Notes under the pieces: model-generated | What the model saw: the letters and a program-made list of their open reading frames with translations, nothing else | Told to the model about the DNA's origin: nothing | The model's database searches: none | Shown: positions 3,524 to 63,674 of the stretch, in pieces | How positions within the stretch are numbered: position 1 is the first letter of the stretch | Layout of the letters: every line of letters begins with the position of its first letter | IMG/VR virus record: IMGVR_UViG_3300023184_000048 | Location: 52,742 to 116,741 of that record | Length of the DNA stretch: 64,000 bases | Direction: 5' to 3' (one strand) | From: a virus | Program-made: the position numbers and the translations under genes

Positions 3524-4010
3524 CCGAAATCTTCTCAACTTCTTTTTCATCAACTTTACTTCTCTTAAACATCTCCTTGAGAAGATCTTCTCTGGAAATG
3601 AATAATCCTGACTTATTACCAAGTAATTCATTTTCATTATCAGAAACTTTAGCTTCGATTCTCATTTGCTCGATTTCCTTCTTGGTTTTATTTGAATTAT
3701 CAGCAAGTTGAATCTTGGATAAAGTGTTGACAGCATTGACTAAAGCATTTACGAGAGTTGCAGTTGATTCAACCATTTTAGAATCTCCTCCAGCTTCTAC
3801 ATCAAGTTTCAAAGATTGAACCATATCCACACAATCATGAATAATCGTTGAAGTTTTTTGAATAACGAAATCTTCCAGTTCTTCTCTTTTGAGTTCGGGA
3901 TGATCTTTTTTGACACGATTCAAAGAATTTGATTGATTTTTGATCTGGTTGATGATACTATCAACATCACGGTCGAGTTCATCATCAAAGTCATCTTCAG
4001 CATTATTCAT
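3510..4010 (-). CDS. Terminase small subunit-like (T4 gp16-like) protein
   Basis: Two long helices joined by GGDSKMVE and C-terminal GLFISREDLLK resemble gp16; late-type TAAATA-N5-ATG. Confidence 0.5.
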   Translation of the reverse strand: MNNAEDDFDDELDRDVDSIINQIKNQSNSLNRVKKDHPELKREELEDFVIQKTSTIIHDCVDMVQSLKLDVEAGGDSKMVESTATLVNALVNAVNTLSKIQLADNSNKTKKEIEQMRIEAKVSDNENELLGNKSGLFISREDLLKEMFKRSKVDEKEVEKISAIDV

Positions 4011-41234: not shown

Positions 41235-41432
41235 ATGAAAACTGAATCATTTTTTCACCAATCCCATCCTTGGGTTGGAACTCAGCACTGTTTACGAGAA
41301 AAAGATGGAGAAGAATTTCAATGCATTAATGATCATACTGGATGTATCTGGAATGATGGACATAATACTTGTATGTTTGAAAGACCTTCTAAGAAACAAT
41401 ACGACTCACCTCTCAATCAAAAATTAGTATGA
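41235..41432 (+). CDS. Hypothetical Cys/His-rich protein
   Basis: Cassette-N7-ATG. Confidence 0.7.
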   Translation: MKTESFFHQSHPWVGTQHCLREKDGEEFQCINDHTGCIWNDGHNTCMFERPSKKQYDSPLNQKLV

Positions 41433-41648: not shown

Positions 41649-41879
41649 ATGAGACAAGATTTACAAGGTTTTTGCATAGGAGTTCTTACAGGTGCTTTTG
41701 CTTTAGGAATTTATTGTTCTTTTTTCGCACAAAATACTAAAATGTATAGGGATGGTGTTGAAGCTACCTATAAAGAAGCCTTTGCACAAGGTTTGATGGT
41801 TAAAGAAATTACCGAAGATGATAAAGTGATTTATCGTTTTATTGAGACGCACAAAATTGGATATGACGGAGAACAATAA
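41649..41879 (+). CDS. Hypothetical membrane-anchored protein
   Basis: N-terminal TM segment. Confidence 0.7.
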   Translation: MRQDLQGFCIGVLTGAFALGIYCSFFAQNTKMYRDGVEATYKEAFAQGLMVKEITEDDKVIYRFIETHKIGYDGEQ

Positions 41880-61406: not shown

Positions 61407-61440
61407 CAATCATTAAAAACTAGGTTAAAATATTACTATC

Positions 61441-61572
61441 ATGAAAACAAACGGATTCACACTATTGGAATTGATTCTTGGAATCTTTATTGGTTTGGTC
61501 GGAATTACAGTTATCTTGTATGTCATTACATGGATCATAGTTCTTTATCACTTCATTACCAAATTCTGGTGA
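61441..61572 (+). CDS. 43-aa prepilin-like peptide (class III signal, GFTLLEL)
   Basis: MKTNG|FTLLELILGIFIGLVGITVILYVITWIIVLYHFITKFW; cassette-N9-ATG. Confidence 0.75.
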   Translation: MKTNGFTLLELILGIFIGLVGITVILYVITWIIVLYHFITKFW

Positions 61573-61603
61573 TCATTAAAAACTAGGTTAAAATACTACT
61601 ATC

Positions 61604-61810
61604 ATGAAGCTCAAACAATACATCGGTAATACAATCTACATCGTCAATGATAACTATTTTGCTGATGGATTCTTTGGAAAACTTGATATCATTCAAAGTA
61701 GATCGGGAGAGTTCTATAATTATCTTGTCAATGGTGTTCAATTCTTTGATAGTGATATTATCAATATTGACAACGAATGTGTTGGTGATATACTTGTGAC
61801 TCTGAAGTAA
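61604..61810 (+). CDS. Hypothetical protein
   Basis: Cassette-N9-ATG. Confidence 0.75.
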   Translation: MKLKQYIGNTIYIVNDNYFADGFFGKLDIIQSRSGEFYNYLVNGVQFFDSDIINIDNECVGDILVTLK

Positions 61811-61820
61811 TACTTATAAA

Positions 61821-61897
61821 GGACATGTAGCTCAGTCGGATAGAGCAAAAATTTTCTAAATTTTAGGTCATTGGTTCGATCCCAATCATGTCCACCA
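61821..61897 (+). tRNA. tRNA-Arg(UCU)
   Basis: GGACATG/CATGTCC acceptor, GCTC/GAGC D stem, AAAAT-TTTCTAA-ATTTT anticodon arm, ATTGG-TTCGATC-CCAAT, encoded CCA. Confidence 0.92.
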
Positions 61898-61937: not shown

Positions 61938-62558
61938 ATGAATATCGAAACTAATAACTCTTGTAACTCTTGTAACTCTTGTAACTCTTGTAACTATTGT
62001 GACTATTGTGACTCTTGTGACTCTTGTAACTATTGTGACTATTGTGACTCTTGTTACTATTGTTACTCTTGTGACTCTTGTGACTCTTGTAACTCTTGTA
62101 ACTCTTGTAACTCTTGTAACTCTTGTGACTCTTGTAACTATTGTGACTCTTGTGACTCTTGTGACTCTTGTTACCCTTGTTACTATTCAAAAAATCTTAA
62201 AATGACTGAATACAACACATTTTGTTGGTCTGAACAATACAATGATGATAAGTCATTCCAACAAAAACGTTATCGTATCTTTAATAAAGAGTATTCAAAA
62301 TCTGCATACGTAAAAATTACATCAAAGATTGAATCCATTATTCCTAATCCCAATAAACTGAAGTTATCAGAGTTTTGGAAAAAGATCACTCAGGATCAAA
62401 TCAAATCTATCATGAATATTGAAGATCTTGAATTTGATGTGGAAGGTTTTGAATATATCACTGGAATCAAGGTTCAAAAAGAACTTAGTGAAGTTGAAAA
62501 AGCTATTCAACTTTTGACCGAAAAAGGATTACTGAAGGATGGAAAGGTTCTCTTATAA
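61938..62558 (+). CDS. Cys-rich tripeptide-repeat protein
   Basis: 25 x-x-C units, then YRIFNK-type domain seen in phage repeat proteins. Confidence 0.8.
   Translation: MNIETNNSCNSCNSCNSCNYCDYCDSCDSCNYCDYCDSCYYCYSCDSCDSCNSCNSCNSCNSCDSCNYCDSCDSCDSCYPCYYSKNLKMTEYNTFCWSEQYNDDKSFQQKRYRIFNKEYSKSAYVKITSKIESIIPNPNKLKLSEFWKKITQDQIKSIMNIEDLEFDVEGFEYITGIKVQKELSEVEKAIQLLTEKGLLKDGKVLL
61956..62180 (+). repeat. 25 x 9-bp tandem repeat (AAC/GAC/TAC)(TCT/TAT)TGT
   Basis: Direct reading of the sequence. Confidence 0.95.
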
Positions 62559-63017: not shown

Positions 63018-63092
63018 TGTCCCGTAGCTGAGAGGTTTTAGCACTTTCTTTATAAGGGAGAGACGTGGTTTCGATTACCACCGGGACTACCA
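63018..63092 (+). tRNA. tRNA-Ile(UAU), with non-canonical U1-U72 and U53-A61
   Basis: GTCCCG/CGGGAC, GCTG/TAGC, CTTTC-TTTATAA-GGGAG, GTGGT-TTCGATT-ACCAC, encoded CCA. Confidence 0.8.
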
Positions 63093-63325: not shown

Positions 63326-63532
63326 ATGAAAGATCCTATTGAAGCTATTCGATTCGCTGGTTTTAGTCTTAAATTTGCTGAAGAAGTATTGATCAAAGCT
63401 CAAAATAAGGCCAATGAATCAGGCGAGAATGTTTACATCTGTCTTGATTACAGGAGTATCTATTATGTTTATCATTCCTTTCTCACAATGTCTGATGATG
63501 TAATCACCCACGTTGAACCAATTAAAAACTAG
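63326..63532 (+). CDS. Hypothetical protein
   Basis: Cassette-N6-ATG; ends IKN*. Confidence 0.75.
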   Translation: MKDPIEAIRFAGFSLKFAEEVLIKAQNKANESGENVYICLDYRSIYYVYHSFLTMSDDVITHVEPIKN

Positions 63533-63546
63533 ATTAGAATACTTTC

Positions 63547-63635
63547 GAGATTACCACTCCCCCGAAAGGAGAAGGAAAGAACATGTCACTGCAATAATAC
63601 TGCAAACCCTCACACCTGAATTGACAGGAAATCTC
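63547..63635 (+). ncRNA. Cassette-driven candidate small RNA (89 nt)
   Basis: Begins exactly 6 nt after the -10; GAGATT/AATCTC closing stem; CTCC/GGAG, TGCA/TGCA and CCTG/CAGG hairpins. Confidence 0.6.
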
Positions 63636-63674
63636 AATCATCTTCATTAAAAACTAACTTAGAATACTACTATC

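Follow-up and report, generated by a model that had tools for sequence, protein, structure and literature searches.

Near the right end of the 64-kb stretch of DNA analysed here (64,000 nt in all, hereafter the window), a 43-codon ORF fills the entire gap between two copies of a promoter-like cassette (Table 1). A prediction made earlier from the letters of this DNA alone (the original prediction) had placed a 43-aa ORF at this site, and the frame was recovered exactly, running from an ATG to a TGA and encoding 43 residues; a TAA at 61426, in the same frame, leaves no room for a longer N-terminus. Gene callers recorded both neighbouring genes and passed over this one. The window is the right-hand part of a 116,741-bp IMG/VR virus contig, rated 57% complete, which carries genes for rIIA, rIIB, two RNA ligases, a helicase, a baseplate wedge, a tail sheath, a tape measure and a T4-type TerL. 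The contig belongs to a T4-like myovirus, as attested by rIIA, rIIB, the RNA ligases, the tail sheath and TerL, in agreement with the phage origin that had been proposed. The best cultured-phage match of its TerL is 35% identical, and the helicase, TerL, rIIB and a phosphoesterase find their best matches, at ~35-43% identity, in phages of many unrelated hosts. The genes adjoining the ORF are orphan phage genes and tRNAs, and both neighbour genes have 90-94%-identical variants on two further contigs, of 9,385 bp and 133,652 bp.

Table 1. Coordinates of the 43-codon ORF, its predicted parts and the flanking cassettes (window positions).
Feature	Position	Strand	Basis
43-codon ORF, headless prepilin-like peptide	61441..61572, including the TGA stop	+	ATG start, motif models, AlphaFold2
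Predicted class III (prepilin-type) leader M-K-T-N-G	61441..61455	+	Sequence; N_methyl alignment covers residues 2-26
Predicted mature 38-residue peptide	61456..61569	+	Sequence, AlphaFold2, Kyte-Doolittle
Promoter-like cassette: ATTAAAAACTAG element, -10-like TAAAAT, 9-nt spacer to ATG	61411..61440	+	Sequence
Next cassette copy, 1 nt past the ORF stop; drives 68-aa gene 61604-61810	61574..61606	+	Sequence

Downstream of the ORF, two tRNA genes, tRNA-Arg(TCT) at 61821-61897 (+) and tRNA-Ile(TAT) at 63018-63092 (+), are interleaved with further cassette genes. The codons AGA and AUA are likewise read by phage tRNAs in T4, and the presence here of tRNAs for both hints at a host less AT-rich than the phage. 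The same region holds a cassette-driven ORF of 206 aa (61938-62558, +), in which the first ~90 residues form C-x-S/Y-C-N/D triplet-like repeats in tandem, encoded by a 9-nt DNA repeat (TCTTGTAAC/GAC), and which matches phrog_15341, a family with no assigned function, at 5e-11.

The cassette itself offers the most direct view of how the ORF may be expressed. Copies of the 33-nt cassette occur at 61411, 61574, 61908 and 63645, whereas none is expected by chance, so that the original description of the ORF as standing on its own cassette is confirmed, with three further copies nearby. In the wider class to which these copies belong, the TATAAT that follows the invariant element ATTAAAAACTAG is separated from the ATG by exactly 6 nt, or by 9 nt towards the right end of the contig; the common form reads ATT-AAAAACTAG-aaTATAAT-N6-ATG and the form at the right end TAAAAT or TAGAAT-N9-ATG. 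The core AAAAACTAG is present on the contig in 39 plus-strand copies and a single minus-strand copy, and the ATTAAAAACTAG cassettes range over window positions 800-63700 of the plus strand (for example, 13159, 23153, 33781 and 61415), standing upstream of rIIA (33781), rIIB (37509) and ~35 other plus-strand genes, the helicase (52981) among them. No Shine-Dalgarno sequence lies between the cassette and the ATG at 61441. Across the genome, Shine-Dalgarno cores ahead of ORFs of at least 120 aa are at background level (7% versus 8% in this phage and 6% versus 6% in its nearest complete relative, G001), so the mRNAs look leaderless or near-leaderless; together with the cassette, this suggests a promoter element particular to the lineage and early mRNAs that are leaderless throughout the genome. 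The cassette shows no obvious stem-loop or terminator half, and an Rfam search of 60-64 kb returned only the two tRNAs.

Since the ORF sits 9 nt after a cassette common to rIIA, rIIB and ~35 other genes, it is very probably expressed, and would be so from a leaderless or near-leaderless mRNA free of a Shine-Dalgarno sequence. The position of the same cassette class upstream of rIIA, rIIB and the helicase points, by way of T4 biology, to the early or middle class, and early or middle expression of the ORF from a cassette shared with rIIA and rIIB may fairly be inferred. A holin reading of the ORF was rejected because the cassette class is that found on rIIA and rIIB and not the late class. One further cassette copy, at window 63522-63640 (+), lacks an ATG at the canonical spacing, and the GC-rich, hairpin-like sequence behind it has no Rfam match. 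Some cassettes also include a TTGAC(A/T) -35 box at a 16-17-nt spacer, which suggests that the host of the phage uses canonical sigma-70 promoters. Other clues to the host were sought in vain: no relative of TerL was found among 185,579 species genomes, and a search for WhiB returned nothing.

The encoded peptide begins with M-K-T-N-G↓F-T-L-L-E, where the arrow marks the predicted peptidase cut after Gly5 (between 61455 and 61456), which would leave Gly at -1, Phe at +1 and Glu at +5 (codon 61468-61470). A hydrophobic stretch of ~31 residues follows Glu+5; its Kyte-Doolittle maximum of 2.86 (19-residue window) makes the product the most hydrophobic among only 8 small ORFs with an N-terminal TM segment on the contig. 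AlphaFold2 predicts a single continuous helix spanning residues 4-42 (pLDDT 93.5), in which G9-x3-G13-x2-G16 (mature numbering) form a glycine face, and the C-terminal tail abounds in aromatic and basic residues (Y, H, F, K, F, W). Both the amphipathic alpha1-C segment and the globular beta-sheet head of a pilin are absent, the product ending 38 residues past the predicted cut. The original prediction had described a basic leader, Gly-1, Phe+1, Glu+5 and a hydrophobic helix lacking a globular head, and it was accurate on each of these points, the predicted fold being one helix only.

Scored against curated models, the product passes the Pfam N_methyl model (PF07963) with 22.5 bits (gathering cut-off 21.2) and the NCBIfam model TIGR02532 with 17.8 bits (cut-off 16.3), in both cases by a narrow margin, and judged by these two models the prepilin-type signal is real. 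A six-frame N_methyl scan of the whole 116,741-bp contig recovered the ORF at E = 3.4e-5 together with only two weaker matches, both of them artefacts and not second pilins: one, of 12.3 bits at window 3628-3693, is antisense to a 166-aa gene, and the other reaches 8.1 bits only. We also applied a PilFind-like rule, which demands a start codon, a K/R leader, the motif G-[hydrophobic]-[STAP]-[LIVM]-[LIVMP]-E and then 14 essentially uncharged residues. Exactly one ORF on the 117-kb contig passes, that at 61441-61572, and 200 contigs simulated with an order-2 Markov model yielded no such ORF. The N_methyl scan and the PilFind-type search, both put forward with the original prediction as ways of checking it, recovered the predicted signal. 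Past Glu+5 the sequence diverges from the helix typical of pilins, and its 22.5 bits with N_methyl compare with 33-41 bits for other viral mini-prepilins; the wider scan that we ran comprised ~250,000 windows, among which some chance look-alikes are expected somewhere.

Homologues of the 43-aa product were sought widely. A word-indexed search of 5.8 billion proteins, at near and longer lengths, and an exhaustive phmmer search of 1.84 billion representatives found none; tblastn against 50,697 phage records, a comparison with PDB sequences and a PHROGs search at E <= 0.1 gave no match, and the best score in an ESM Atlas search was an uninformative 0.78. The exact peptide is absent from a 15-billion-protein collection in which both neighbour proteins are present. 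The search for homologues in phages that the original prediction had called for gave none in cultured phages and one weak match, with 13 of 38 positions identical, to an 80-aa ORF of G001. This nearest complete relative has 211,724 bp with terminal repeats and a TerL 69% identical to that of the contig, and here, too, exactly one ORF passes the PilFind-like rule, namely the same 80-aa ORF, which starts with MKRG↓LTLLEVVIG, continues as a TM helix and ends in a charged helical tail. It scores 23.3 bits with N_methyl in the six-frame scan and 19.3 bits as a protein; its BLASTP alignment to the 43-aa product has E = 9e-7, a value that belongs to a single comparison and to a TM composition that inflates scores. 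In another sample, a variant 79% identical to the G001 ORF is nearly unchanged from Gly-1 to about +12 and varies in the later TM residues.

In a three-way alignment, M1, K2, G5, T7, L8, L9, E10, G14, I17 and L19 are invariant, and we delimit a candidate lineage mini-prepilin family (the window ORF, the G001 80-aa ORF and P0009) by the core M-K-x(1-2)-G↓x-T-L-L-E-x3-G. Since a Glu+5 buried in the TM segment is kept in three diverged sequences, the alignment argues for a pilin-type function of these G↓xTLLE ORFs rather than that of a generic TM anchor. The window and G001 ORFs are not syntenic, which makes homology between the two uncertain. The stretch from 58.4 to 64 kb of the window has no counterpart anywhere in G001, the cassette is entirely missing from that genome (0 copies of AAAAACTAG), IMG/VR pattern scans for the sub-family formed by the window and G001 ORFs found only G001, and four more distant TerL relatives, available as fragments only, had no N_methyl match.

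Two possible landmarks linking the ORFs of the window and G001 were considered and dropped. Synteny by way of window positions 41235 and 41429 was rejected, since the G001 ORF follows their homologues and the corresponding window spot holds a different TM ORF; the tRNA-Arg(TCT) genes found near both ORFs are not clearly orthologous. The protein at the syntenic window position is a 76-aa single-pass membrane protein (41649-41879, +) that is conserved in G001 (161683-161913) and has the leader MRQDLQG↓FCIG and no Glu+5; small TM proteins seem to have been exchanged at this spot. G001 further encodes 22 tRNA genes, 19 of them in one minus-strand array, and one tRNA with a CTA anticodon (L034:16159-16232, minus strand, at ~196.2 kb), called 'Pyl' by ARAGORN, is a candidate amber (TAG) suppressor.

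To place the ORF in a broader setting, IMG/VR was scanned with the pattern ATG-AAR, 3-15 nt, then G-F-T-L-x-E, which returned at least 120 matches against ~30 expected by chance on a rough uniform-composition estimate. Among the matches listed, which represent 80 loci, 75 of 82 are in frame (38% expected) and 70 have a TM tail; they include eight complete ORFs of 32-55 aa and ~33 of 61-110 aa, among these a recurrent 78-93-aa family, the remainder being full-size pilin-like proteins, some of which may be host DNA. One of the eight, a stand-alone gene of 46 aa, lies among small genes in a complete 205-kb myovirus with a T4-type terminase and is named prepilin-type in IMG. PHROGs contains six pilin-like families, three of them of 59-72 positions and with no assigned function (phrog_10597, phrog_13280 and phrog_11263). 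Other viral mini-prepilins match short pilin-like PHROG families at 1e-6 to 1e-11; the 43-aa product had no profile match to these three or to the pilin family phrog_3433. A tblastn search of phage records with a 60-aa PilA-like N-terminus gave no match, probably because of low-complexity masking. By these counts, large viral genomes commonly encode small prepilin-like ORFs, and phage ORFs of this kind are not unique to the 116,741-bp contig.

The recurrent 78-93-aa family starts with MKQRGFTLIEL or MKQRGFTLIEM, scores 40.7 bits with N_methyl and continues into a conserved small Cys-containing domain (...GINGMTESRCIEGYKFVVG...). It was seen on many viral contigs, including some of 105-331 kb (loci L044, L050, L053, L056, L060, L071, L072, L079, L083, L085, L103, L104, L107, L113 and L121), and beyond the signal peptide it matches only PHROGs with no assigned function.

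Type IV pili and their relatives are major phage receptors, organelles of motility and adhesion, DNA-uptake machines and secretion pistons. We propose, with a probability of about 0.45 and on the strength of sequence and predicted fold, that the product of the 43-codon ORF is a headless pilin mimic, matured by the prepilin peptidase of the host, that blocks the assembly of type IV filaments. The 43-residue product would insert into the host inner membrane in prepilin fashion, with its N-terminus in the cytoplasm, and a host prepilin peptidase of the PilD/GspO/ComC type would cut after Gly5 and N-methylate Phe+1. The mature 38-residue helix would then present the docking end of a pilin, including Glu+5, with neither an alpha1-C segment nor a globular domain behind it. 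Remaining membrane-bound, such a helix could rival the pilins or pseudopilins of the host at the assembly platform, thereby acting as a dominant-negative 'poison subunit', and extension of the filament, be it a pilus, a T2SS pseudopilus or a competence pseudopilus, would halt. The likely benefit to the phage would be loss of a pilus receptor, so that superinfecting phages are excluded and progeny are not wasted on infected cells, or else shutdown of a host function. A search for Peptidase_A24 (prepilin peptidase) in G000, G001, G006 and G007 found none, and the proposed activity would, with no peptidase encoded by the phage itself, depend wholly on the host. Interference at the assembly platform fits better than titration of PilD, which is the weaker idea because a substrate with Gly-1 is cleavable and would be turned over.

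The same features can be read in other ways. In the main rival reading, which is rather unlikely, the product is a small inner-membrane peptide whose target has nothing to do with pili, and whose G↓FTLLE start arose by chance or relates to insertion; candidates would be an immunity or exclusion protein that blocks injection, a membrane-perturbing peptide, or a modulator whose GxxxG face engages a host membrane protein. Early regions of T4-type phages commonly encode single-pass membrane peptides that are small and serve other roles, and T4 itself has small membrane proteins such as Imm and Ac there. In keeping with such a role, both model scores are borderline, the sequence no longer follows the canonical pattern beyond +5, no homologue turned up among PHROGs or pilins, and both phages carry several small TM ORFs devoid of the motif, including the 76-aa one at the G001-syntenic spot. 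What speaks against it is that, of the ~8-11 small ORFs with an N-terminal TM segment in each phage, exactly one has the full motif, placed at the boundary of leader and TM segment, that the motif arose in 0 of 200 simulated genomes, and that Glu+5, embedded in the TM segment, is kept in the three diverged sequences. It is unlikely that the locus holds no functional protein gene at all, the frame being an accident behind a duplicated cassette, or the cassette serving to drive a short non-coding RNA, as the copy at 63522 with no nearby ATG may do. Absence of the exact sequence from the 15-billion-protein collection and lack of a G001 counterpart for the region would suit that account, as would codon usage that is low for a gene: frame 0 has a log-likelihood ratio of 0.05 per codon, compared with 0.28 +/- 0.12 for in-frame gene chunks (3rd percentile) and -0.45 for out-of-frame chunks. 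Yet this score exceeds 99% of the out-of-frame chunks, and a low value is not surprising for an all-TM peptide. Moreover, a random 43-codon frame is open by composition with a probability of ~0.03, and the joint chance of an ATG at the exact canonical 9-nt distance and a 132-nt inter-cassette frame that stays open is ~1/64 x 0.03; the frame also encodes a coherent, model-passing signal with a TM helix, and Rfam gave no match.

The last alternative starts from the pilin reading and differs from our proposal in the outcome. Naturally headless pilins, such as Flp/Tad pilins and Geobacter PilA-N, do polymerise into filaments, and structures of Tad pili have reportedly been described (PMC10710030), so 'no head, therefore jams' is not automatic and incorporation stands as a rival. 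The product would then be a true polymerising subunit, major or minor, built into the host filament, and would mask the receptor rather than arrest assembly, by giving the filament a surface with no phage-binding head or an altered tip. Phage-encoded precedents are the prophage-encoded FimU mimic (P-FimU), which enters the pilus and protects against phages while pilus function is kept, and a truncated phage PilA (P-PilA) of 60 residues, for which incorporation has been proposed (PMC12952977). Nevertheless, we consider a polymerising role improbable: at 38 residues the mature product is smaller than known polymerising pilins, Pfam gave no Flp-type match, and its C-terminal third is strongly hydrophobic and aromatic, ill-suited to the solvent-exposed surface of a filament. 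Because this third is hydrophobic and aromatic and not amphipathic, a membrane-resident blocker is favoured over a built-in subunit.

If the assembly-blocking mimic that we favour proves correct, a 38-residue peptide that switches off type IV filaments by way of the host's own maturation enzyme would rank as the smallest pilin mimic known, would help to explain how virulent phages exclude competitors, and would offer a simple tool or lead for blocking type IV filament machines. We also offer, tentatively and as a rather unlikely extension, that headless prepilins are a widespread but overlooked phage weapon: tiny early peptides, matured by the prepilin peptidase of the host into chain-terminating 'poison subunits', that could halt all type IV filaments, from pili to the T2SS and competence machinery, within minutes of infection. 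On that broader reading, the dozens of IMG/VR G↓FTLIE ORFs (32-110 aa, including the 78-93-aa family) might form one functional class, of which this T4-like lineage may have evolved its own minimal 38-residue version on a leaderless mRNA cassette. Given how common small prepilin-like ORFs are in large viral genomes, the class deserves a direct test.

With type IV pilins and T2SS pseudopilins the 43-aa product has in common a short basic leader, Gly-1, Phe+1, Glu+5 and a hydrophobic alpha1-N helix; unlike them, it has no alpha1-C segment and no globular domain, and its gene neither lies beside assembly genes nor is accompanied by a phage-encoded peptidase. Flp/Tad (type IVc) pilins differ from it in having a longer leader and a G↓xxxxEY motif, whereas the product described here has a 5-residue leader and Leu after Glu+5, and the Pfam scan found no Flp family at E <= 10. 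The genomic setting recalls the PeSL cassettes of T4-type phages, repeated early-promoter motifs on either side of single orphan genes in plastic genome regions, to which a part in gene shuffling has been ascribed (Arbiol et al. 2010, PMC2839356; Comeau et al. 2014, PMC4122927). The mini-prepilin similarly lies in a lineage-specific block (window 58.4-64 kb) that G001 lacks; the cassette departs from PeSL in showing no obvious stem-loop or terminator half, in its invariant ATTAAAAACTAG spacer element, and in an ATG only 6 or 9 nt after the -10 box, which would make the mRNAs leaderless or nearly so.

Among phage proteins that act on pili, PfsE of Pf phages is a 30-residue membrane peptide with an N-in orientation that binds PilC, stops T4P assembly and thereby gives superinfection exclusion (PMC8764522). 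It resembles the 43-aa product as a tiny phage peptide of the inner membrane with the same predicted topology and an aromatic-rich segment, but it carries no prepilin signal and binds PilC through a YxWGW motif (PMC8764522), which is absent from the 43-aa sequence, and the likeness is thus one of proposed function only. The minor-pilin FimU mimics encoded by prophages (P-FimU of F10-like Pseudomonas phages) become part of the pilus and keep out phages that bind its tip (Sztanko et al. 2026, Cell Rep, PMC12952977). Like the product studied here, P-FimU is a phage-encoded pilin-like protein, and it enters the host pilus pathway and protects against phages; unlike it, P-FimU has the full size of a functional minor pilin as well as additional loops, is produced from the prophage at host-like levels, and replaces a subunit instead of blocking assembly as proposed here. 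When overexpressed, FimU disrupts pilus assembly (PMC12952977).

Among the closest published parallels is the truncated PilA of ~60 residues encoded by six virulent Pseudomonas phages, for which incorporation or inhibition of assembly was proposed without an assay (PMC12952977), the same two functions as are considered here for the 43-aa ORF. Truncated P-PilA and the short pilin-like PHROG families share with this ORF their origin in virulent phages and a prepilin leader joined to an alpha1-N helix with little or no head. The 43-aa product is shorter (38 residues after the predicted cut), has no detectable sequence match to them, departs from canonical PilA after Glu+5 in favour of an aromatic tail, and comes from an uncultured T4-like lineage with leaderless cassettes. 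Truncated phage pilins are therefore already in print, and the present case extends the one remark published on truncated phage PilA in two ways, through the abundance of small prepilin-like ORFs in large viral genomes and through a more minimal, sequence-divergent form from an unrelated lineage of uncultured T4-like phages.
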